NCBI GenBank assembly: GCA_029558735.1
Contig: JAKQDP010000047.1
Coordinates: 209-64,208 of the forward strand
Direction of reading: 5' to 3'
DNA from: a bacterium
Lineage (GTDB): Bacteria > Patescibacteriota > Patescibacteriia > 2-01-FULL-39-33
Length of the DNA stretch: 64,000 bases
The position numbers and the translations under genes were made by a program. How positions within the stretch are numbered: the first letter of the stretch is position 1; the number at the start of each line of letters is the position of its first letter. Below, in pieces: positions 22,750 through 50,232 of this stretch. The notes beneath the pieces were generated by a model. The model made no database searches. It worked only from the letters and a program-made list of their open reading frames with translations, and had not been told where the DNA came from.

Positions 22750-22822
22750 CGCGGGGTAGAGCAGTTGGCAGCTCGGCGGGCCCATAACCCGCAGGTCGCC
22801 GGTTCGAGTCCGGCCCCCGCAA
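22750..22822 (+). tRNA. Initiator tRNA-fMet (anticodon CAT)
   Basis: Cloverleaf with a C1xA72 mismatch and three consecutive G:C pairs closing the anticodon stem (GGG/CCC). T-loop TTCGAGT. No encoded CCA. Confidence 0.85.
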
Positions 22823-22832
22823 CAAAATAGGA

Positions 22833-22904
22833 GCCAGGGTAGCTCAGTGGTAGAGCAGTGGACTCATAAGCCATTGGTCGTGGGTTCAATTCCCACCCCT
22901 GGTA
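22833..22904 (+). tRNA. tRNA with anticodon CAT (elongator Met, or Ile2 if lysidinylated)
   Basis: Acceptor GCCAGGG/CCCTGGT, D-arm GCTCAGTGGTAGAGC, anticodon loop CTCATAA, T-arm GTGGGTTCAATTCCCAC. Confidence 0.8.
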
Positions 22905-22913
22905 CATCCAGAT

Positions 22914-22999
22914 GCCGAAGTGGCGGAATTGGTAGACGCGCACGACTCAAAATCGTGTGGACTCTGTCCATGAGGGTTCGATTCCCTCCTTCGGCACCA
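22914..22999 (+). tRNA. tRNA-Leu (CAA), class II with a long variable arm; CCA encoded
   Basis: Acceptor GCCGAAG/CTTCGGC, anticodon loop CTCAAAA, long variable arm, T-arm GAGGGTTCGATTCCCTC, 3' ACCA. Confidence 0.85.
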
Positions 23000-39486: not shown

Positions 39487-39872
39487 GGGGATGTATCGCT
39501 TCGATAGGAATAATTTAAAAATTAACAAGCCGAGGTCGGTGTTACCTCGCTAAACCTGCCGACTAAGATAAGTGCAAACAACTTATTTGCCAAATTAAAA
39601 TCTGCTTTCAGCGGATTGGCTTTGGCTCCTGCCGTTGCTTAATTTAGCTTAACGGCCATCGCCTTGCCTTAGGCCCGACGGGCAACTAGCGGTGTTATAT
39701 TATCGGGCTCGGTGATAATCCCGCCTTGAGATTATCACTTAAAACTCCAAGGCCAAGCTGTTGCCGTTTTGCTCCTTTTTACAGGCAACAGACTAAAATA
39801 AAAAGGAGCTAAGCTTGTAGTTTAATTTTTAATCCTTATTCTTAGACAGGGGCTCATTACCCCTCATCTCCA
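39487..39872 (+). ncRNA. ssrA: tmRNA (ssrA), about 386 nt
   Basis: Immediately downstream of smpB. 5' GGGGAUG pairs with 3' CAUCUCC, including the G3:U70 alanine identity pair; the discriminator is A. There is an internal ORF ending …GCUUAA that gives the tag (A)NNLFAKLKSAFSGLALAPAVA*. Confidence 0.8.
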
Positions 39873-39891
39873 CTGATAAATAAATAAAATA

Positions 39892-41090: not shown

Positions 41091-41296
41091 TATTGACTTT
41101 CCATAAAATTACTGCTAAAATAACTTCTGACGCATTAGTTGGAATACCGAATATAATCCAAATGCAGAAAAGAAATAATTAGAAAATAGAAACTATTTCG
41201 CCTTCTCGCTCAACTCGGGTAGAAAAATGGTTCCCTCGACCGAATGTGACAATTTATAATTTAAAAACGCTTGGGGGGCGTACCTGCCCGCCTTGG

Positions 41297-41376
41297 GTGG
41301 GGCTCACAGTTTGGTTACCTGTCCGCCTTTGGTGGAGAGCGCTGCCCTGTCACGGCAGAGGGTCGAAGTCCGCCCC
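41297..41376 (+). pseudogene. Degenerate tRNA-Asp-like fragment
   Basis: 41336-41360 is identical (25/25) to the tRNA-Asp D-stem plus anticodon arm (AGAGCGCTGCCCTGTCACGGCAGAG). D-loop CAGTTTGGTTA is present but interrupted by an insertion. The acceptor and T-arm are not conserved. Confidence 0.55.
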
Positions 41377-41380
41377 AGGC

Positions 41381-41477
41381 GGACGAGACGGGCAGAAGCG
41401 AAACAATTCGCCGATAGGCGAATGAGCTGAGCGTCGCTGAATGCGACCCCTGGGAGCATTCAGCGCTGCCCGGGAAC
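41381..41477 (+). repeat. Conserved tRNA-adjacent structured element, copy B (paralogue of 23060..23149)
   Basis: GGACGAGACGGGCAGAAGCGA, hairpin (ATTCGCC-GATA-GGCGAAT), AGCGTCG, hairpin (CTGAATGC…GCATTCAG), CGCTGCCCGGGAACG. This is the same skeleton as copy A with compensatory hairpins. Confidence 0.6.
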
Positions 41478-41529
41478 GTCGGGTGTAACCCGCGACCGAA
41501 ACAATTTTAACAATCAATTATCAATTTAT

Positions 41530-41607
41530 GGACCGGTAGCTCAGTTTGGTTAGAGCGCTGCCCTGTCACGGCAGAGGTCGCGGGTTCAAGTCCCGTCCGG
41601 TCCGCCA
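41530..41607 (+). tRNA. tRNA-Asp (GTC), CCA encoded
   Basis: Acceptor GGACCGG/CCGGTCC, anticodon loop CTGTCAC, T-arm CGGGTTCAAGTCCCG, then a terminator hairpin (41620-41652). Confidence 0.88.
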
Positions 41608-43098
41608 ATCGCAACAGAGAGCCCTTTGATACACTCTATCAAAGGGTTTTTTATATGCTATACTTATGTTTTTGTCTTTAAGTGTAGAGTTCAAAAGTAA
41701 AAAATTAAGTAGTTCTTGTTTTTCCTCTGATTTGGCATTTTCATAAAGTAAACTCGCCATATTTGAGAGTTCCAAAATATTTATGCCTGTTCGGTAATAA
41801 TCAATGTTAGCTTTTGTTAGCTTGCTTAATTTATCATTTAAGTCCTCAATCTTTTTCTCATATTCGCCAGCTTTTTTATTGTAATAATCTTTTGTAATTG
41901 TCCTGTCCAACCTATCCTCGTATAGTGTGTCTAAACTGCTCTCTAAACGCCGTTTTTCGTCCTCTAACGCCTCTCTGGTCTTGTCTTCGGTATTCCTCTT
42001 AAACTGCAAAGAGCCCTTTAATCCCTCTGCCACATACAATATAGTATCTTGGGAGGGCAGTTTTATGCCCTCCAAATATTTAGCTATTTGTCCGTCTAAT
42101 TCCTCCTCTTTTGCTGGCTGTTGGGAGCAATCTGTTTTGTATTTAGTGCAACTATAATAAACATATTCTCTCCCAGACGGCTTGGTTTTGCGTATAGCGG
42201 TAATATTCCTCCCACACTCCCCGCATTTCATTAAGCCCTTAAAAGTAAAATCCAAAGTGTTGTATTTAGAAAGCATTTTTTTATTCTGAAATCTATCTAA
42301 AACATTTTGGACTTTATTCCAAAGCTCTTTGGTTATAAGCGGTTCGTGTGTGCCTTTATATAACTTATCTTTCCAAATAAAATCTCCATAATAAAACGGA
42401 TTGCGTAAAATCCTTTGTGCCGTGCTTTTTGTTATATTTTTTAATTTAGTATTTTGGGGAAAATTAGCGGGTATTAACAAGCCCTCGTCTTTTACTTTTT
42501 TAATTAAACTATCAAGAGAATATAAACCAGTAGAATAATACTCAAACATCTTAATTGCCAATGTCTTATTTTTCTCATCAATCACTGGCACGCTTTTATT
42601 ATTCTGCTTTTCCAGTTTATAGCCCAGTGGCGGAGTGCTACAAGGATAAACTCCGCTTTCCGCTTTTTGAGCCAATCCTTTTTTAACTTCCTCGCTTAAA
42701 TTATCAATATAATTCTTAGCCATTAAAACCTTTATCCCGTGCATAAATTTTTGGTGGGAGTTTGCGTCTTTTCCTATCCTTTCGTTTTCCTTAACTAAAA
42801 CAACCGTTATACCGAGTTCGTCTATAATTACGTAGTCCTTAAAATTTCGGTATAAGCGGTCTGTTTTTTCTACTAATAAATTATCTACTTTTTTGTTCTG
42901 CTCTAAATACTCAACCATTTGCGAAAAGCCAGTCCTGCCAGCTTGCTTGGCGGTTTCGTCATCTTCAAACTCCTTAACAACCTTAAAACCATTTACTCTG
43001 GCATACTCCCAAAGCAGTTTTTTCTGAGCTGGTATTGAGTAGCCCTCGTCTTTCTGCTCTTTTGAGGATACTCGGACATAGATGACTGCTTGTTTCAT
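41566..43098 (-). CDS. Large serine recombinase (integrase)
   Basis: N-terminal resolvase catalytic domain (AVIYVRVSSKEQ…), a recombinase domain, a zinc ribbon (CGECGRN…YYSCTKY) and a coiled coil. The last ~30 codons are antisense to the tRNA-Asp 3' end and terminator (…GRDLNPRPLP). Confidence 0.85.
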   Translation of the reverse strand: MKQAVIYVRVSSKEQKDEGYSIPAQKKLLWEYARVNGFKVVKEFEDDETAKQAGRTGFSQMVEYLEQNKKVDNLLVEKTDRLYRNFKDYVIIDELGITVVLVKENERIGKDANSHQKFMHGIKVLMAKNYIDNLSEEVKKGLAQKAESGVYPCSTPPLGYKLEKQNNKSVPVIDEKNKTLAIKMFEYYSTGLYSLDSLIKKVKDEGLLIPANFPQNTKLKNITKSTAQRILRNPFYYGDFIWKDKLYKGTHEPLITKELWNKVQNVLDRFQNKKMLSKYNTLDFTFKGLMKCGECGRNITAIRKTKPSGREYVYYSCTKYKTDCSQQPAKEEELDGQIAKYLEGIKLPSQDTILYVAEGLKGSLQFKRNTEDKTREALEDEKRRLESSLDTLYEDRLDRTITKDYYNKKAGEYEKKIEDLNDKLSKLTKANIDYYRTGINILELSNMASLLYENAKSEEKQELLNFLLLNSTLKDKNISIAYKKPFDRVYQRALCCDWRTGRDLNPRPLP

Positions 43099-43101
43099 AA
43101 G

Positions 43102-44493
43102 CTATTTACTTTTCTCAATCAAACCCTCAACAAATTGTTTAGCTTCTTCCAACTTTTCTTTTGACTCTCTTTTTTCTTTCAAAGATAATTTGATTAACTT
43201 TTCAATCTCTTTGCTTTTATCACTCTTAGACAATTTCAATAAATCTTTTGGAATTTTTATTTTTTTAACATCTTTGGGATATAAGTGAGAGGTTTGTCCT
43301 TTAACCTGCCTTTGTATAAGCTCATAGCCAACCTGCGAACGCATAAACAAAAGTAATACATAAGGGTTAATATCCGTCTTGGCTTTTATTGTTATTATTT
43401 CCGCCACTGTAAAAACTTTTTTAAATTCATCTGGTATATAATCAACAATATCAATCTTACTGCCGATATAACTGGCTTGGTGAGCGGCACAACCCAAAAC
43501 AATATTATCTTGCTCCAATGAGTTTTTATATTTATTGGAAATTTCCTCTTTAACAAAACCTCGCTCCTCATTCTCCCAATCAATGCCATTGCCTCTTATA
43601 GCTCTAAACTTCATAATTCTATTGCCACTCTCAACATAATCATCAAAGGCGGGAGTTTTACCAATTAAAACATCTGCCACATCACCCAATAAAATAAACT
43701 CATTTGGATTTTTTTCGTATTCATTTTCAAAATAGAAAAACGGGTCAATCCTATCTAATATATTTATTTCATTATTCCACTTAACAAATGATTTTTCCTT
43801 TTTGGAAATGTCTAAATATTTATTCAGCTCTTTATTAAAAATATCAACTGTTTTTTGATAATTATCTTTTGACTTTTCTAATAAACTCCAATAAATTTCT
43901 ATTATTTCTTTTACCTTTTCTTTTTCACTTGATTTTAATTCTGGCAATGTAATATTTCTAAAAAAATTCAAATCTAAAAATGGTCTTGTGCCAGCGTGAG
44001 CCATTATCTCAATTTTTTCTTTAAATAGGTTAGTTTTCAAAAAGGCATATAAAAAATAAACATTTAATTCATTTTTTGTTCTTAAAATCATTGCATTCTG
44101 GTTCATCAGTATTTTAGGGATAACTCTTGGCATTAAAAAACATTTCCCAACAGTATTGCCTGTAACAGTTATAACTATATCAAGAGGTTTAATTCTAAAA
44201 TTGGAATATTTATCCCAAAAACCATTATCAACCATTGCCAATCCATTAAAATCAATAACATCATCTATGTCTGATACTCTAAAAATACCAATCTCTCCAT
44301 TTGGTAAATAATCGGTGCTTTTAAACGCAAAACCCTTTATATAATCAGCAAAATCAAAAACATTATTATTTGAATATTTACTGGTATTTTGTTTTTCTGG
44401 GTCGTAAAAAGAAGTATCGCCTCTTTTAGTAAAATCAATCTGATAATTCCAAAGAATAAAACAATTATTTGTTTTTACATTTTCCTTTACCAT
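43102..44493 (-). CDS. HsdS-like specificity subunit (two target-recognition domains); candidate B subunit of a BcgI-like type IIB system
   Basis: 463 aa with duplicated TRD architecture. It overlaps the A-subunit gene by 7 nt. Confidence 0.7.
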   Translation of the reverse strand: MVKENVKTNNCFILWNYQIDFTKRGDTSFYDPEKQNTSKYSNNNVFDFADYIKGFAFKSTDYLPNGEIGIFRVSDIDDVIDFNGLAMVDNGFWDKYSNFRIKPLDIVITVTGNTVGKCFLMPRVIPKILMNQNAMILRTKNELNVYFLYAFLKTNLFKEKIEIMAHAGTRPFLDLNFFRNITLPELKSSEKEKVKEIIEIYWSLLEKSKDNYQKTVDIFNKELNKYLDISKKEKSFVKWNNEINILDRIDPFFYFENEYEKNPNEFILLGDVADVLIGKTPAFDDYVESGNRIMKFRAIRGNGIDWENEERGFVKEEISNKYKNSLEQDNIVLGCAAHQASYIGSKIDIVDYIPDEFKKVFTVAEIITIKAKTDINPYVLLLFMRSQVGYELIQRQVKGQTSHLYPKDVKKIKIPKDLLKLSKSDKSKEIEKLIKLSLKEKRESKEKLEEAKQFVEGLIEKSK

Positions 44494-46430
44494 AAATAAC
44501 TCTTATATTGTTTTTTAAACTTATCCCATTCCTTCAAAATCTCTGGGACATCAGTGTCCAAAGCTCCTTGCATTTCAACCAAAAGCGGGTCTTGTTTTGT
44601 TTTCTTACCTTTCTTATCGGTTAAATATTCAATCGGTCTATCCTCCCAATCAACCACTTCGCCCTTATTGTTTCGCTTATAGGTTTTTCTGCCTCTAATG
44701 TCATATCCTATTCTTTCTATATTGGCAAAAAATATCGGGTATTTTTCTGGGAGCTTGCCGTCTTTCGGCTTTTTAATAAATAGCACACTTGATTTTACTC
44801 CCGCTCCAAACGGGACAAAAGTTTCCTGAGGCAAACTAACAACTGAAATAATCTGCACTTTATCTTTTAGCCAAGCCCTTACAAACTCGGTATTCTGATT
44901 AGTTAAATCGCCGTCTGGCAAAACTATCGCCATTCTGCCACCCTCTTTAAGCAGTCCAATACACCGCTCAATAAACAAAATATCTGGCACTTGTCCGCCC
45001 CCTTTCTTGCCTGCCAATAATTTGCCTTTCTCAAATTCACCAGTCGCTTTATCTTTTTTCCAAGTATAGCCAAAATCATAATCAGCTAAAATATTTTGGT
45101 CTGACACTTTTCCTTTTGAGCCAAAAGGCGGGTTGGTCATTATAATATCAATGCTTTCTCTGGTAATTGTTTGATTAGTATTTTTACCCAGCTCGGAATA
45201 AGGAATAAGAGCATTGGAAGTCCAAATCCCAGTGTGTCCGTCATCAATCATTACCATATACATCTTGGCGACCTTAGTTAAATCATTATCAAAATCAATG
45301 CCTTTTATATGAGTAGTCGCATATTCTTTGATATTTCCTCTTAAAATTTCCCTTTGGTCTTTTGTTAGTTCACTGTCTTTAATTGGATTGCCATTTTCAT
45401 CAAGCCAGCCACGCTGTTTTTTAACCAAGTCCCTAAAATAATTAACCGCAAACACCAAAAAGCCAGATGACCCACAAGCTGGGTCAAGCACAACCTCGTC
45501 TGGTTCTGGCTCTAACATTTCAACAACAAGTTTTTTAATCGGGTCGGGAGTAAAAAATTGCCCAGCGTCTCCCCGAAAATATGCTCCCAAGAAAGATTGA
45601 AATGCCTCACCCTTAATATCGGTATCTAAGATTGTTATATTTTCAAACTCACGGACAACATTAGCAATCTGCCTTGTTGGTATTTCTATTTTTTCACTGC
45701 CGTCAAATATGTCTTTAAATTCTTGTCGGCTTTTTGCCTCATTAAATAAATCAAAAACTCTATTTTCAAATGCTTTACTTTTTCCAGTAGCTAAAATATC
45801 GTCCCATTCTCTATCATAAATAACAAATTTACATTCTTTATCAAAACTTTTTTCATCTTGTATTTTGGCAAACAAAAGATAAATTACTTGATAAAAAACC
45901 TTTGCCTTATTGCCTGCTTTATAATTGGCGTAAATATCGTTGTGTATGCGGTCAAATTTGGCTTGTAGATTGCTTGACGGTCGCAAATCTTTTTTCATTA
46001 TCTTTTTATCGCCGTATTGCTCACCATAGCGGGGGAGATTGGCTTTTTCTTCATATCGGTCTGGCTCTTTTAGTCTTTTCCAATATTTAATTTCCAAGCC
46101 GTTTGTCCAAACTCCAATTTGAGCGGTAGTAGAATTTACATAACCCTTTAATTGTGGCTCGCCGTCTGGGAGTTTAGCGTCTGGCTCTTTGCACTCAACT
46201 ATAATATAGTGATTTTCTCGTCTGTCCTTATCTTGTGGAGACGGATAAATAACAATATCAGCTCTTTTTTTATCGTCTCTGCCCATTTGGATTGGCACTT
46301 CCAAATCAATATTTTCTTTTGGATAGCCATACTCCTCAACAAGCTGACGAGCATATTCCTGCCTGACTTTTTCTTCTGGCGTTTCGGTTATTTCCAAGCC
46401 CCTTATATAACAAGTAATTTTATTTGCCAT
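44487..46430 (-). CDS. Fused PD-(D/E)xK nuclease-like N-domain and N6-adenine gamma-class methyltransferase (BcgI A-subunit-like)
   Basis: N-terminus has D…IVECK (PD-D/ExK). MTase motif I VVLDPACGSSGFL; motif IV TNPPFG. Confidence 0.75.
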   Translation of the reverse strand: MANKITCYIRGLEITETPEEKVRQEYARQLVEEYGYPKENIDLEVPIQMGRDDKKRADIVIYPSPQDKDRRENHYIIVECKEPDAKLPDGEPQLKGYVNSTTAQIGVWTNGLEIKYWKRLKEPDRYEEKANLPRYGEQYGDKKIMKKDLRPSSNLQAKFDRIHNDIYANYKAGNKAKVFYQVIYLLFAKIQDEKSFDKECKFVIYDREWDDILATGKSKAFENRVFDLFNEAKSRQEFKDIFDGSEKIEIPTRQIANVVREFENITILDTDIKGEAFQSFLGAYFRGDAGQFFTPDPIKKLVVEMLEPEPDEVVLDPACGSSGFLVFAVNYFRDLVKKQRGWLDENGNPIKDSELTKDQREILRGNIKEYATTHIKGIDFDNDLTKVAKMYMVMIDDGHTGIWTSNALIPYSELGKNTNQTITRESIDIIMTNPPFGSKGKVSDQNILADYDFGYTWKKDKATGEFEKGKLLAGKKGGGQVPDILFIERCIGLLKEGGRMAIVLPDGDLTNQNTEFVRAWLKDKVQIISVVSLPQETFVPFGAGVKSSVLFIKKPKDGKLPEKYPIFFANIERIGYDIRGRKTYKRNNKGEVVDWEDRPIEYLTDKKGKKTKQDPLLVEMQGALDTDVPEILKEWDKFKKQYKSYLW

Positions 46431-46437
46431 AGTTTTA

Positions 46438-46623
46438 TTATTTAGTTTCTACTTTATTTAAAAAATTATTAAATTCATTCTCATCAATCCTAAACTCTTT
46501 GCCAATTTTATATGCCCTAACCTTACCCGCCTTTATATAGCGGTATATAGTCATATTTGATACTCGCAGTTTTTCTGCTAATTCTTCAACGAGATAAAAA
46601 TCTTTTTTATTTTTTTGTGTCAT
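46438..46623 (-). CDS. Excisionase-family HTH DNA-binding protein (Xis-like, or a controller protein)
   Basis: 61 aa, FYLVEELAEKLRVSNMTIYRYIKAGKVRAYKIGKEFRI (HTH_17-type). Confidence 0.7.
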   Translation of the reverse strand: MTQKNKKDFYLVEELAEKLRVSNMTIYRYIKAGKVRAYKIGKEFRIDENEFNNFLNKVETK

Positions 46624-47003
46624 AGTATAGTTCCCTCTGTTTTAGCTTTTTTAATTAACTTATCAAAATCAGCTTTTGGTATAAGCGGACAAAACTGTCC
46701 CCATCTCCATTTACCGTCAGCTCCGTTAATTTTCCCAACTATGTAATAACCAATTCTATATTCAATATCACCCTTTTTCCAACCTTTATAAGCTATTTTG
46801 CCCTCAATTTTTTCCTTTCTTAATCTTTCAATAATAAAAACTTTTTTATCAAGATTATGCTGAGGCATAAGAGTTATTGCTTCTTTTACAAAATAAAATC
46901 TGCCTTCCCTGCCAATATCTTTCATTCCAATCAGTTTATCTTTTTGCTTTTCAAATTGCTCTTTTTTCCTTTTGATAAATTGTTGAGCCGTTTCCGTTTT
47001 CAT
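46620..47003 (-). CDS. Hypothetical protein (127 aa), cargo gene
   Basis: ORF track; ATGA overlap with the downstream HTH gene. No recognisable motif. Confidence 0.55.
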   Translation of the reverse strand: MKTETAQQFIKRKKEQFEKQKDKLIGMKDIGREGRFYFVKEAITLMPQHNLDKKVFIIERLRKEKIEGKIAYKGWKKGDIEYRIGYYIVGKINGADGKWRWGQFCPLIPKADFDKLIKKAKTEGTIL

Positions 47004-47005
47004 TT

Positions 47006-47539
47006 TTAATATTTATATAAATTTTTGAAATTATCTTTGTTTAACATCTCTCTATGCATTGCAAAAAACACCTTGTCCATTTCTCTGGGAGTAATATTAT
47101 ATTTTTTTGCTAACCCTCTCATTGTCTTTAAATATTCAATCCAATTATTAACCGACATATTATTTGATAATTTAAAACCAAGTTTTTTTAACATTTCAAC
47201 ACATCTTATATCAATTATTGCATATCGCTCTGGAAAAACAACAGTTAATATCGCAGAGGCAGTCGGTATACCAACGCCAGACAAGGAACATAACAATTCT
47301 ATTTTTTTACTCTCATCATTCTCCCTAAAAGCCAATTTTGAAATTGATTTTATACTATCTTTATTTTTTAAATAATTCGGCTTTTGCCTGTTTGACTTCC
47401 ACATCGCAATAGCAAAAAAATCATCAAAATCTAAATAACCCTTTCTTTTTACTTGCTTGCCAATATTATTAAATAAAAAATATTCCAAATCATAAAACTC
47501 CAAATATTTTTTAATTTCTTGTTTTGTGAGCTTTTTCAT
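47006..47539 (-). CDS. HhH-GPD superfamily (DNA glycosylase-like) small protein, cargo gene
   Basis: LSGVGIPTASAILTVVFPERYAIIDIRCVEML parallels endonuclease III LPGVGRKTANVVL…IAVDTHIFRV (helix-hairpin-helix plus Asp). No Lys is present at the lyase position. Confidence 0.5.
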   Translation of the reverse strand: MKKLTKQEIKKYLEFYDLEYFLFNNIGKQVKRKGYLDFDDFFAIAMWKSNRQKPNYLKNKDSIKSISKLAFRENDESKKIELLCSLSGVGIPTASAILTVVFPERYAIIDIRCVEMLKKLGFKLSNNMSVNNWIEYLKTMRGLAKKYNITPREMDKVFFAMHREMLNKDNFKNLYKY

Positions 47540-47597
47540 TTTTAGTATTTATACTGAGGTAATGCTATGTTAGCATTATACCTCATTTAACAATAGT

Positions 47598-48764
47598 TTA
47601 CAACTGGATTTGGCTTTGTCTTGGTTTTATGATATTAAATTGCTCGTGTTCTGCCTTTAAAAAAGCGACTAAATTCGGTAATTTACCGTCTATATTGGGT
47701 AATTCTGCCAGTGCCAAAGCTATCTCATTTTTAATCCTCGCTATGCTCCCACCTTTGTAGTTTTCTTTTATCATTTCCCATACAGATTTTATACCAAATT
47801 TGGTAGTCATACCCACCCAATAATACAGTTCAATTTGCTTTTTATGGCTTAAACCCGACTTATCCAAATAAACTAACAACTCATTATCTTTCATTTCCGA
47901 TAATCCCACCAATCCAATAGCAGTATTATCAAAAACACTATTGAAATTATCCAGTAAAATTTGCTTAGCTAAATTACTATTTAATACATCTTTAAGTATT
48001 AAATCTTTCTTCATTTTTCCCTCCAATCTCTTACCGACTACCGACTCTAAACTTCTTTTATTTTGAATAGCCAACTCAAATTTTACCGCACTTCTTTTTT
48101 GATTTTTATTAAACTGCTCTATCAGATTTTTTTCATAATCAGTATATCCTCGCTGTAAAAGCTCGCCAATTTTATCGTATATAACATAGCCCTGAGTGGT
48201 ATTCCAAAACTTTACCCCAACACCATTATCACCTCTATCAAAATATCTATTTAAGTTAAAATCAGAGCTGGGCTTATAGTTAAATTGAGATAACTTTATT
48301 ATTACCTGTGGGGCTTTACCAAGATAAGGCGGTAATATAATAATTTTAGAAAAATCCACCCTTTTTAATATTGCCCCCTCAATACTACTAATGTCTGTAT
48401 TTATGCCCGCCTCTTGTAAATAAGCCACTGTTGTCTTATTTATCTTGTTATAATCAGACTCATCTATCTCTAATAAACTTGTTCCATAAACCGCCTTTGG
48501 AAGTGAGATTTGGATTTCCAGTGTTTCCTTTTCTTCTTGATTGCCAGATTTTCTTATTGGTCTTTTTATATAAGGAAAGTATCTTCCATTTTTATGCTGG
48601 CTTTGTGAATACTCCCAACTGTCCGCCGTGCCAACAAAAAATCCCTTTCCGCCACTGCTTCGCTTACTATATAGCTTATGGCTATCTTGTATTTTATACT
48701 GCCCAGCTTTAAGCTCCCAAACAATACTATCAATCATAACTTGCCCTCCTCCTCTAATCGCCAT
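47598..48764 (-). CDS. Hypothetical protein (388 aa), first gene of the cargo operon
   Basis: ORF track. Low-GC codon usage matching the element. No motif recognised. Confidence 0.55.
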   Translation of the reverse strand: MAIRGGGQVMIDSIVWELKAGQYKIQDSHKLYSKRSSGGKGFFVGTADSWEYSQSQHKNGRYFPYIKRPIRKSGNQEEKETLEIQISLPKAVYGTSLLEIDESDYNKINKTTVAYLQEAGINTDISSIEGAILKRVDFSKIIILPPYLGKAPQVIIKLSQFNYKPSSDFNLNRYFDRGDNGVGVKFWNTTQGYVIYDKIGELLQRGYTDYEKNLIEQFNKNQKRSAVKFELAIQNKRSLESVVGKRLEGKMKKDLILKDVLNSNLAKQILLDNFNSVFDNTAIGLVGLSEMKDNELLVYLDKSGLSHKKQIELYYWVGMTTKFGIKSVWEMIKENYKGGSIARIKNEIALALAELPNIDGKLPNLVAFLKAEHEQFNIIKPRQSQIQL

Positions 48765-49049
48765 TTTATTTTTTGTAATGTGCTATAAAATCCCAACAAG
48801 TTATATCTCGCCTCAAACACCTCCTCCTCTTTTAAATCAAACGCCTCAACGAGTCCTTTTCGTTCAAGCTCATCTATTTTATTGTCCATAAACCATAAAA
48901 TCTCCGCAAATACGCAGAGACTTTATGAGACAATACCATTTATTGTCATTTGGACAATTTTATGATATAATAAACTTGCAGTTAGTTTACGCATAAATCT
49001 TGCGTGAATTTGCACAAAAACCCCTGTTTCCGCAGGCGGTTTTTGCTTT

Positions 49050-49688
49050 TTATATTGTTATTGTTATTCCACATTCTTTTAATCGGTAGCTGGCGGATTG
49101 CTCGGATACTTGAAATTCATCAGCCAAAACCGAAATACTTTTTACTTCCTTAAATTTTTTAATAAAATAATCCTGTGGCATTAAATACATAGCCGTTGCC
49201 TTATCTGTTGATTTTTCAAATAATTTTAAAACAACTTCTGGGGGCAATGTTGAATTGCACAACAATTCGTCAAAATAATTCTGAAATCCAACATCAAGCG
49301 ACTGAATAAAATGCATTGTCTCGTGTATCTTAGTAAATCTTTGTCTTTTGAGCGGAGTCGCTATATCATAAAATATTGTTATCTCACCAGTTTCCTCATC
49401 TAACTCCCAATAACCATCTCTTGTCTCTAAAAAACCATTAAAACCTTGATAACTTATTGTATAACCAGATAAATAATTAACGATTAAATCCGTGTCCATT
49501 GGCAAGGAAATGCCATTTGGGGCGGTTTTTATTATATCGTTAATCAATCTTTTACTATAAGCAACTAATTTATTTAACTCCTGATAATATATACCTTTGC
49601 AATCCGCTGGTATTCCGTCATTATAAGACTGCCTAAGCCAATACAGATTGTCTATTACATTAGAGCTCTTTCTTGATATACTTAGCAT
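49050..49688 (-). CDS. ImmA/IrrE-family metallopeptidase
   Basis: HEXXH motif HETMHF. Overlaps the upstream XRE gene, an ImmR/ImmA-like arrangement. Confidence 0.7.
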   Translation of the reverse strand: MLSISRKSSNVIDNLYWLRQSYNDGIPADCKGIYYQELNKLVAYSKRLINDIIKTAPNGISLPMDTDLIVNYLSGYTISYQGFNGFLETRDGYWELDEETGEITIFYDIATPLKRQRFTKIHETMHFIQSLDVGFQNYFDELLCNSTLPPEVVLKLFEKSTDKATAMYLMPQDYFIKKFKEVKSISVLADEFQVSEQSASYRLKECGITITI

Positions 49689-50061
49689 ATTTCAAAACAT
49701 TATTTATCTGTTCTGGCGTATAGCCGTTGCTCCTTAATGCCTGACTTATCATCTGAAAACTTGGCTTGGCTTTATTATCTAATATTCCAAGCTCCTCCAA
49801 AAAATCTTTTAAAGTCATATCAAAGGCGTCTGCCAGTTTCTTACAAGTCATCAAAGAAAGAGATTTGAAATCACCCTCCTTTAATTTAAAGATAAAAGCA
49901 GGGGAAAGTTCCGACCTTTCTGCTAAATCACTCCAAGAGAGATTTGATTGTTGCCTTAGTTTTTCAATTGTGTTTACTATGTTTTTCATAGGTTTTTGTT
50001 TATATGGTAGATATATCACCCACCTACTATCCATTATATACCTTATTTTCACTTTTGTCAA
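49660..50061 (-). CDS. XRE-family HTH transcriptional regulator (ImmR-like)
   Basis: IEKLRQQSNLSWSDLAERSELSPAFIFKLKEG HTH_3 pattern. The start is probably the internal Met (MKNIV…). Confidence 0.7.
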   Translation of the reverse strand: MTKVKIRYIMDSRWVIYLPYKQKPMKNIVNTIEKLRQQSNLSWSDLAERSELSPAFIFKLKEGDFKSLSLMTCKKLADAFDMTLKDFLEELGILDNKAKPSFQMISQALRSNGYTPEQINNVLKYAKYIKKEL

Positions 50062-50189
50062 TAGTATTTTTCACGATAGTGAAATATTACCGCATAGCCA
50101 AAAAATAGTCAAGTTTTTTTAATTCAACGCCAAAACTACCGACTATCTCTACCCAGTTTAGAGTTCTAAAATCGTCCCGTAGCCCCCGC

Positions 50190-50232
50190 TTAAACAAAAT
50201 AGCCCGAATTTATTCCGGGCTATTTTGTTTAT
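50190..50232. terminator. Strong 15-bp perfect hairpin at the AT-rich / GC-rich boundary
   Basis: AAACAAAATAGCCCG-aatttattc-CGGGCTATTTTGTTT. Confidence 0.7.

Follow-up and report, generated by a model that had tools for sequence, protein, structure and literature searches.

A serine-recombinase integrative element at the 3' end of a Patescibacteriota tRNA-Asp gene

We analyzed a 64,000-nucleotide (nt) stretch of DNA, here called the window, from a bacterium of the Patescibacteriota (2-01-FULL-39-33; GenBank assembly GCA_029558735.1, contig JAKQDP010000047.1, positions 209 to 64,208 of the forward strand). Within it a tRNA-Asp gene is followed by a low-GC block of ten open reading frames (ORFs), all on the minus strand. 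The block leads from a repressor and metalloprotease pair, through a probable replication initiator, a small helix-turn-helix (HTH) protein and a restriction-modification pair, to a large serine recombinase gene (int) whose last codons lie antisense to the tRNA. The same 8,584 bp are exactly present or absent in otherwise identical genomes. The features on which the argument turns are as follows, in window positions.

41530-41607, plus strand: tRNA-Asp(GTC); host DNA at 41530-41605, with the last CA of CCA (41606-41607) derived from the element
41606-50189, no strand: mobile element, delimited by presence and absence in near-identical contigs; GC 33.3%
41566-43098, minus strand: large serine recombinase, integrated form, 510 amino acids (aa); Resolvase, Recombinase and Zn_ribbon_recom domains
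41602-41605, no strand: crossover block CCGC of attL, from comparison of the four attachment (att) sites
50186-50189, no strand: crossover block CCGC of attR, from the same comparison
41606-41630, no strand: putative P' half-site of attP, within int codons LCCDW, with TCGCAAC at half-site positions 6-12
50087-50185, minus strand: stranded coding remnant of the excised-form integrase tail (GLRDDFRTLNWVEIVGSFGVELKKLDYFLAMR plus stop); exact match to protein P0126 on contig L096
41620-41652, plus strand: putative substitute terminator borne by the element; hairpin 41622-41646 with flanking G-U/A-U pairs and T6, not in the empty site
50192-50230, plus strand: native tRNA-Asp terminator; host-derived perfect 15-bp hairpin, moved 8.6 kb from the tRNA by the insertion

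Occupied and empty alleles of the tRNA-Asp locus

The tRNA-Asp(GTC) gene was called by ARAGORN and scored 71.1 bits against Rfam. An exact look-up of the neighboring ribosomal protein L20 led to near-identical genomes in two NCBI assemblies and in several metagenomes; the block is present in some and missing from others. Six contigs lacked it precisely (L001, L004, L006, L007, L009 and L010), and three independent assemblies (L002, L003 and L005) carried it at 100% identity over all 8,584 bp, with a flanking haplotype common to occupied and empty alleles. The empty-site contigs set the ends of the element at 41606 and 50189. The same attB in GCA_029562875.1 (L008, 10908-12664) holds a 97% identical variant (47 mismatches in 1,758 bp; integrase P0127), which suggests that more than one lineage of elements uses the tRNA-Asp site.

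GC content is 33.3% in the element and 42.6% in the rest of the window, and varies from 25 to 40% within the element (500-nt windows). To the right it is 37% over 116 nt, followed by a gene at 53.5%, and about 60% is reached in only one 200-nt window. A first-pass annotation, made from the letters of the sequence, had placed the drop exactly between the tRNA end and the hairpin at 50192-50230, with about 60% beyond. The low-GC block stands, but its limits and the plateau beyond it do not, and although the hairpin is indeed perfect over 15 bp it is not the right boundary, which lies three bases earlier at 50189; it is the native terminator of the tRNA. In its central proposal, that tRNA-Asp is the site of an integrative element whose large serine recombinase gene runs antisense into the tRNA, the annotation was borne out by the empty and occupied sites and by a contig that spans the attP junction. 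The same three kinds of sequence contradict the outcome that it had named as fatal to the proposal, an immobile gene block with identical boundaries in distant relatives and with host-like codon usage. The ORF listing likewise agreed that all ten ORFs lie on the minus strand, every substantial ORF from 41566 to 50061 being so oriented. Since the same 8,584 bp come and go in otherwise identical genomes, neither the GC drop nor the overlap of ORF and tRNA nor the insertion is due to chance.

The surroundings of the insertion site are those of ordinary housekeeping genes: a tmRNA gene (134 bits) lies within 39487-39875, directly downstream of smpB and upstream of infC-rpmI-rplT. By its closest named GlyRS relatives, which are Falkowbacteria, Buchananbacteria and Moranbacteria, the host looks Parcubacteria-like.

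Attachment sites in the integrase gene and the excised form

The int product matched Resolvase (PF00239, 1.6e-25), Recombinase (PF07508, 1.9e-13) and Zn_ribbon_recom (PF13408, 2.1e-10), all above the Pfam cut-offs, as expected from the earlier call of a large serine recombinase. Catalytic residues R9-V10-S11 were invariant in 44 and in 103 homologues, and the four cysteines of the zinc ribbon (C292, C295, C317 and C324) were invariant as well. The AlphaFold model, with a predicted local distance difference test (pLDDT) score of 88.5, contains a long helical hairpin at 350-454 (paired helices 350-397 and 403-454); a search of solved structures with the Int sequence matched the catalytic domain alone. 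A resolvase domain with its catalytic serine, the Recombinase domain, zinc ribbon and coiled coil, and short att sites with a 5-bp shift between arms together make up the architecture of a large serine recombinase. The gene overlaps tRNA-Asp by 42 nt in antisense and passes through the hairpin and T-run at 41620-41652, so that residues 500-510 of the 510-aa protein and its stop codon are antisense tRNA-Asp and the protein ends in TGRDLNPRPLP.

All four att sites were seen in public data. With a slash marking the junction, attB (the empty site) reads ...GTCCCGTCCGGTCCGC/TTAAACAAAATAGCCCG..., attL reads ...GTCCCGTCCGGTCCGC/CAATCGCAACAGAG... and attR reads ...CGTCCCGTAGCCCCCGC/TTAAACAAAATAGCCCG...; around the junction itself the empty allele has ...GGTCCGC/TTAAAC and the occupied allele ...GGTCCGC/CAATCG. 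The sole sequence identical across attB, attP, attL and attR is CCGC. Because serine integrases exchange strands at a 2-bp center and need no further homology, an identity of 4 bp is ordinary here. The absence of a direct repeat, from which an atypical mechanism or boundary had been suspected, therefore needs no such explanation: a 4-bp block between dissimilar arms is the norm for serine integrases.

From the dyad symmetry of the arms we favor CC (41602-41603) as the probable central dinucleotide. With CC as the center, the P, P' and B arms all have CG(G/C)(G/A)AC at positions 7-12, reading CGGGAC in the P and B arms alike, and a distal GAAC stands at positions 15-18 in the tRNA (B) arm and at 20-23 in the attP (P) arm, a shift of 5 bp. 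The P half-site is the first ~25 nt of the minus-strand remnant at 50087-50185; the P' half-site is kept in aligned relatives as CCA(A/G/T)TCG(C/G/A)AAC. The same arm pattern was found in the relative L019 and in a distant Asn-targeting pair (attP of L029 against attL of L034), and the attP arm looks like the antisense T-arm of the tRNA with five inserted bases. Rutherford et al. (2013; PMC3783163) modeled binding of the recombinase domain at the same offset in attP and attB, with the zinc-ribbon motif 5 bp nearer the center in attB. Recognition here would follow this standard serine-integrase logic, with the proximal CG(G/C)(G/A)AC at one offset in both sites and the T-loop-like GAAC 5 bp further out in attP.

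These sites bear on the conventional expectation for such a locus, which is that integration was the work of a tyrosine integrase acting on an extended direct repeat derived from the tRNA, and that the serine recombinase is no more than a resolvase or invertase passenger. That reading is already contradicted, and we give it virtually no credence. The 3' end of a tRNA is the classic target of tyrosine integrases (PMC4383910), yet Pfam, PHROGs and NCBIfam revealed no tyrosine recombinase domain in any of the ten ORFs. An imperfect 17-nt similarity does link the tRNA end with the right end of the element (GTCCCGT..CCCGC), but the identity at the junction is just 4 bp and no displaced tRNA fragment is left. 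The serine recombinase, for its part, has the full architecture of its class, always adjoins the tRNA in 55 related loci and contains attP inside its own gene.

Joining the ends of the element predicts that int reads on into 50185-50087, so that attP lies within the 3' end of the gene, and the product would have 531 aa, ending GLRDDFRTLNWVEIVGSFGVELKKLDYFLAMR, in the excised form as against 510 aa in the integrated form. Exact-sequence cluster look-up found the predicted 531-aa protein (P0126) in an ENA assembly. Its contig, L096, is 8,558 nt long, 100% identical to the element, circularly permuted, and spans the exact attP junction. It came from sample ERZ27257442, in which the chromosome contig L007 spans an empty attB; the 510-aa form is recorded from five samples, all other than ERZ27257442. 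A complete episomal relative was found in a Saccharibacteria metagenome-assembled genome bin (L026; CAYSEN010000019.1, 1-11249), where a 55-nt terminal overlap gives a closed circle of 11,194 bp; the genes on it are XRE, ImmA, orf51, Rep, HTH_17 and a 529-aa integrase of the attP form.

L096 is most simply read as a free circle; the main alternative is a tandem array. A tandem duplication would yield the same junction, and relatives do have tandem arrays with attP-like junctions between elements (L097). Window positions 47131-47156 are missing from L096, so that another 26 nt would be needed to close the circle, and its ends do not overlap; an exact search of JGI metagenome contigs and IMG/VR with the 27-mer of the attP junction gave no match. 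These points count against a circle. Even so, we think it very improbable that L096 arose from tandem duplication in the chromosome and that the element has become a fixed island, no longer able to excise. The empty attB of the same sample is spanned by chromosome contig L007, which extends 10 kb on the tRNA side and ~3.9 kb beyond; the sample has no recorded 510-aa int, and so no attL; and L096 continues for thousands of bases through the junction without the break expected from a branch to host DNA. The common flank haplotype of empty and occupied alleles and the closed circle L026 speak further against a fixed island.

The array-bearing contig deserves a description of its own. On L097 (JGI 3300037067, a 50,724-nt contig; positions 1-21440), P0066, an integrase whose tail is of the attP type, precedes another element-like block. 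A further integrase, with a tRNA-type tail (P0055), has the same longest-contig figure of 50,724 nt, and L097 is probably a tandem array.

CCA, terminators and the integrase family

The native tRNA-Asp gene has no encoded CCA (GCTT...), and the occupied gene encodes it (GCCA...) with a CA that comes from the element; the element therefore turns tRNA-Asp into a CCA-encoding gene. Among the four tRNA genes of the window (22750-22999 and 41530-41607), tRNA-Leu alone encodes CCA natively, both tRNA-Met genes and the native tRNA-Asp being without it.

In empty contigs L001, L007 and L009 the native terminator hairpin begins 2 nt after the tRNA. The occupied allele has in its place the element's own hairpin (-14.9 kcal/mol, plus a T-run), antisense within the int codons KKPFDRVYQRA. 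The last ~30 codons of int had been described as antisense to the tRNA and its terminator. The antisense overlap is correct (42 nt of the tRNA, and the hairpin at 41620-41652), but the terminator does not belong to the host, since it is absent from the empty site. A hairpin with a T-run lies 27-62 nt past the tRNA end in 28 of 56 family loci, the window included, and at 37-43 nt in 26 of them; at that distance it falls inside the last int codons. Control antisense windows within int contained one in 33 of 1,008 cases (3.3%; Fisher p = 5e-23).

Homologues of Int number in the thousands in the databases, and the closest 120 are mostly from Patescibacteria. At least 66 of 111 full-length homologues end in ...W-(acceptor stem)-D(S/L)NP..., which is antisense CCA, acceptor stem and T-loop; seven have the attP-type tail ...GLRDDFRT..., and most others stop a few codons after the W. 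A scan of one genome per species gave more than 586 relatives, from which 80 loci (39-72% identity) were kept. In 55 of these 80 the int ORF ends within a tRNA on the opposite strand, entered from the tRNA 3' end. The tRNAs targeted across the family are those for Asn, Gln, Asp, Arg, His, Glu, Ala, Ser, Trp, Ile and Pro, and the hosts, as labeled, include Patescibacteria, Alpha- and Deltaproteobacteria, Acidobacteriota, Planctomycetota, Armatimonadota, Omnitrophota and others, among them the cultured Novosphingobium resinovorum. Cultured phages and sequenced plasmids held no homologue closer than ~30-32% identity, the best cultured-phage integrase being 30.5% identical. Judged by these sequences, the element is one member of a large, multi-phylum clade of integrases that use tRNA 3' ends in the same way. 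In N. resinovorum strain Shazo N (L056, 10001-11614) the int ORF traverses a whole antisense tRNA-Pro, and this strain might serve for experiments.

Several roles would fall together on the last ~35 codons of int, comprising the antisense terminator (KKPF...QRA), the P' half-site (LCCDW), the crossover (R) and the P half-site (GLRDDFRT). Recombination within this stretch changes the gene product. The near-invariant KKPF (AAA AAA CCN TTY) is the T-run and stem start of the terminator read backwards, and the conserved C(C/S)DW corresponds to CCA together with the P' half-site. For this reason we judge that the att half-sites and the terminator, acting through the DNA sequence, probably account for most of the conservation at the int end.

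The protein tail might nevertheless matter. In such a case episomal Int531, with its conserved tail, and prophage Int510, with an arbitrary tRNA-antisense tail, would differ in activity, stability or directionality, so that Int in effect "knows" its state of integration. We regard a functional swap of this kind as conceivable yet doubtful. The motif GLRDDFRT(L/M)(D/N)W has a ratio of nonsynonymous to synonymous polymorphism (pN/pS) of 0.18-0.27 with six Leu codons and three Arg codons in use, but its codons coincide with the P half-site (CGGGAC, 5 nt, TT(A/C)G(A/C)AC), and DNA-level selection therefore explains much of this, including the AGA/CGA/CGC "synonymous" changes. In 10 of 10 attP arms the frame stays open for 16-31 codons past the W despite divergence of the sequence, against an off-frame median of 10 codons, a contrast that is not significant (p = 0.076). 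The crossover falls directly after the last confidently folded helix (486-494) in the AlphaFold model, yet the tail of the modeled 531-aa form has low confidence (pLDDT 39-69), and the tails of integrated forms range from 3 to ~30 residues and have no common sequence. Myxococcus phage Mx8 provides a precedent, in which, according to a review (PMC6070905), integration makes a new int 3' end and changes the properties of the integrase. More broadly, and only tentatively, we suggest a multi-phylum clade of tRNA-3'-end serine integrases that hold attP, a replacement CCA and a terminator in their last ~35 codons, in which the tail swap would serve as a built-in sensor, making the enzyme favor integration when it is encoded on the circle and excision or quiescence when it is encoded in the chromosome.

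Several further observations concern the DNA around the tRNA. Near-identical strains carry two quite different hairpin alleles of the native terminator at 50192-50230, AAACAAAATAGCCCG... and AAAAAAACATCCGC... (L004, L006 and L010 compared), and the first of these is the allele at every occupied site. Just upstream of tRNA-Asp, at 41218-41465, lies a 248-nt GC-rich (~56%) insert that strain L006 lacks and that occurs once in the window. Within it are a T-arm-like GGTCGAAGTCCGCC and 26 nt (41336-41361) that repeat the tRNA anticodon arm (41552-41577) exactly. The insert matched no Rfam family and folds better than its shuffles (z = -3.7); a tRNA copy in decay, a small mobile insert and an unknown kind of RNA are all candidates. 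Finally, AACCCGCGACC (41487-41497), 33 nt upstream of tRNA-Asp, is the exact reverse complement of GGTCGCGGGTT (41577-41587, variable/T-stem), and strain L006 has AACCCGCGACC too.

Backbone, cargo and comparison with known systems

The remaining features of the element, from its right end leftward in the direction of transcription, are listed below.

50033-50061, minus strand: perfect sigma-70 consensus promoter before xre; TTGACA-17-TATAAT, 12/12 matches
49660-50034, minus strand: XRE-family HTH repressor, 124 aa per public gene calls; HTH_3 and HTH_26 above cut-offs; start uncertain, maybe ATG 49989
49050-49688, minus strand: ImmA/IrrE-type metalloprotease, 212 aa; Pfam Peptidase_M78 at 30.6 bits against a 22-bit cut-off
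48890-49049, no strand: control region; two palindromes (48894-48927 and 48929-48947), promoter-like sites on each of the strands and, following immA, a terminator-like hairpin (49015-49045)
48734-48889, minus strand: conserved 51-aa ORF (orf51) upstream of Rep; gene call in L003 and L005, 48-64% identical in L016, L017, L019, L020 and L026
47598-48764, minus strand: probable rolling-circle replication initiator (Rep), G2P/Phage_CRI family; 388 aa as called, likely true start ATG 48737, giving 379 aa
47006-47539, minus strand: 177-aa helix-hairpin-helix, glycosylase-like protein, variable region; weak matches to Ogg-HhH (2.6e-4) and NF002305 (3.4e-9), both below cut-off
46620-47003, minus strand: 127-aa ORF, variable region; no Pfam, PHROGs, NCBIfam or PADLOC match, not conserved in relatives
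46438-46623, minus strand: HTH_17 excisionase-family protein, 61 aa, probable recombination directionality factor; TIGR01764 "excise" 2.3e-13, above cut-off
44487-46430, minus strand: fused nuclease-methyltransferase, 647 aa, BcgI A-like, cargo; Pfam N6_Mtase 9e-34, HSDR_N_2 1.7e-25
43102-44493, minus strand: specificity subunit of restriction-modification, 463 aa, two target-recognition halves, cargo; PADLOC Specificity_I 1e-21 in two matched stretches

The XRE gene adjoins the M78 gene with a 29-nt overlap, an ImmR/ImmA-type pair in which the protease may cleave the repressor. At the domain level the earlier calls of XRE/ImmA, the HTH protein and the BcgI-like A and B subunits were all upheld. 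A control region of 285 bp had been described as well; its palindrome GACAATA/TATTGTC is present (48929-48947), but the 51-aa ORF lies within the interval and the true intergenic stretch is ~160 bp. Face-to-face promoter-like sites at 48943-48971 (plus) and 48949-48920 (minus) overlap this palindrome, and transcription from the plus-strand site (11/12 matches, with TG) would run into immA and xre in antisense.

One of three genes given as unknown by the first-pass annotation is probably a G2P-family rolling-circle initiator. Among 30 aligned Rep homologues (30-57% identical), 14 match PF05144, the N-terminal domain of the filamentous-phage G2P initiator (best 8.7e-9), and the rep gene is conserved beside XRE/ImmA in relatives; such a protein could nick DNA. 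An inovirus prophage, hinted at by the G2P-like Rep, was rejected, as coat and Zot-like genes are lacking (PHROGs).

The 61-aa HTH_17 protein is the best conserved of the backbone, at 64-84% identity in close relatives with both Rep and Int. In L019 and L022 its gene stands directly upstream of int, whether cargo is present or not, and it adjoins int in the smallest elements; synteny thus makes it a probable Xis or recombination directionality factor. We rejected a role for it as a MAD1-like controller of the restriction-modification cargo, since it is kept in cargo-free relatives, directly upstream of int there.

The cargo pair has the make-up of a BcgI-like type IIB system at the domain level, with an A subunit that joins a nuclease to a gamma-class N6-methyltransferase and a separate two-domain specificity subunit. 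The 647-aa protein matched PADLOC MTase_II (9e-108) and NCBIfam MAD2 at 446 bits against a 720-bit cut-off, and the 463-aa subunit matched NCBIfam MAD5 (1.5e-19) at 70 against 400 bits. With MAD1 at 29 against 80 bits, and no mad3, mad4 or mad6-8 found by NCBIfam, the genes fall short of a MADS assignment.

Close relatives of the Patescibacteria type keep the backbone XRE - ImmA - orf51 - Rep ... HTH_17 ... Int and vary in the segment from HTH_17 to int. Related elements measure 5.4-11 kb and often carry defense genes, so elements of this group seem to be defense-gene carriers. The cargo of L097 consists of defense genes (EcoRI-type methylase, AAA_15 ATPase, DUF2130, GmrSD and DndB).

We found no virion structural, terminase, lysis or packaging genes among the ORFs (PHROGs, NCBIfam), and no relaxase, conjugation, mobilization or type IV secretion domains in those of the element (Pfam, PHROGs, NCBIfam). 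The latter absence, a size of 8.6 kb (relatives 5.4-11 kb) and a layout like that of phage-inducible chromosomal islands (terminal int, XRE/ImmA switch, replication initiator and Xis-like protein) would suit a phage satellite or decayed prophage that needs a helper phage, rather than an autonomous plasmid-like integrative element. We consider a satellite unlikely. Capsid, terminase, packaging and interference genes are all lacking (PHROGs, NCBIfam), a search of IMG/VR with the attP pattern found no related sequence, the best cultured-phage integrase is as distant as noted above, and the circular form was assembled without sign of a helper. On sequence grounds we instead read the locus as an integrative, rolling-circle, plasmid-like element that carries a BcgI-like restriction-modification pair.

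In our reading of the mechanism, the large serine recombinase moves the element into and out of the tRNA-Asp 3' terminus by attP x attB recombination. Crossover occurs at the final bases of the acceptor stem or at the discriminator, so the body of the tRNA stays host-encoded. The element adds the CA of CCA and a new intrinsic terminator, whose sequence is seen and whose function is presumed, and leaves the native terminator 8.6 kb off at attR, while the int product changes from its 531-aa circle form to its 510-aa chromosomal form. In the probable life cycle, orf51, Rep, the Xis-like HTH, cargo and int would form a rightward operon under the control of XRE/ImmA, with the 61-aa HTH_17 protein as excision factor, and the G2P-like Rep would copy the excised circle.

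Taken as a whole, an 8,584-bp integrative element that also replicates itself as a rolling circle, is driven by a serine integrase at the tRNA-Asp 3' terminus and belongs to a family of such elements is in our view highly probable. Several points detract from this. Recombination, excision and replication are inferred from assemblies; the window copy of Rep is itself below the Pfam threshold for PF05144; and the HTH_17 protein is also MAD1-like, so that its role as excision factor rests on synteny. Any central dinucleotide within CCGC is a candidate only, as the sequence does not fix the choice, and in the relative L017 the reconstructed attP is out of frame. Covariation in the terminator hairpin, tested in a fixed register, did not rise above controls; the stem register shifts among relatives, and the per-sequence test of hairpin and T-run against control windows was used in its place.

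The large serine integrases of phages phiC31, Bxb1, A118/LI, TP901-1 and SPbeta (SprA) have the same three domains and coiled-coil insert as Int, and like the element they use short att sites that share few crossover bases, with a 5-bp distal shift as in the LI integrase model (PMC3783163). They target a protein-coding gene or intergenic site, whereas the element targets a tRNA 3' end, has attP in the int frame and carries in int an antisense terminator for the target gene. In Myxococcus phage Mx8, as here, attP lies within the int coding sequence and integration makes a new int 3' end (IntP to IntX); its attB also overlaps a tRNA-Asp gene. Unlike Int, the Mx8 protein is a tyrosine recombinase, belongs to a 49.5-kb phage with a long identity block, and exchanges a much larger C-terminal piece. 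The altered Mx8 integrase stays active with changed properties (review PMC6070905; attP within int also in PMC4383910). Archaeal integrases of the SSV1 type share with the element an attP in int, a tRNA target and an integrase ORF across attP (PMC4383910), but they are tyrosine recombinases whose int is split and inactivated, whereas here just the extreme C-terminus is swapped and the folded protein stays intact.

Islander-class islands at tRNA and tmRNA genes, which use tyrosine integrases, resemble the element in integrating at the tRNA 3' end, in having the gene restored by the element, in placing int beside the tRNA and in their frequent defense cargo; they leave a displaced tRNA fragment as a direct repeat, and the element leaves 4 bp. 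ICEBs1-type ImmR/ImmA elements and phage-inducible chromosomal islands share the XRE gene with adjacent M78 gene, the divergent control region, the Xis/Rep/Int modules and small size. In contrast to these, the element lacks relaxase, conjugation and packaging genes and has a G2P-type initiator and a serine recombinase. At the domain level its cargo resembles BcgI-like type IIB restriction-modification and MADS in the N-terminal nuclease fused to an N6-adenine methyltransferase and the separate two-lobed specificity subunit; it differs from MADS in that its best NCBIfam models, MAD2 and MAD5, score far below their equivalog cut-offs.

Serine integrases were not known to target tRNA genes at the time of the Islander paper (PMC4383910). 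A review of integrative and mobilizable elements and the 2026 ProBord survey contrast tyrosine integrases on RNA genes with serine integrases elsewhere, and the largest survey of large serine recombinases (Durrant et al. 2022) nowhere mentions tRNA. A full-text literature search, not exhaustive, found no published account of tRNA-targeting serine integrases, and the integrase group is apparently both large and undescribed. Its chemistry is that of canonical serine integrases; what is new is the class of target and the arrangement of attP, terminator and CCA embedded in a gene, of which we found no published description.

The element and at least 55 related loci contradict the view that tyrosine integrases use tRNA genes and serine integrases use protein-coding or intergenic sites. 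They point to a different solution to the problem of keeping a tRNA unbroken, with crossover at its last bases, a CCA supplied by the element and a terminator antisense in int, and in them a single run of DNA has to satisfy overlapping demands: those of coding for protein, of two recombinase half-sites and of an RNA terminator. Island finders that require a tyrosine integrase or a tRNA-fragment repeat will overlook the whole class. As tRNA genes are conserved and present in every genome, integrases of this kind could offer natural landing sites in bacteria that are hard to engineer, and for the Patescibacteria they give a first handle on mobile DNA and on possible vectors.

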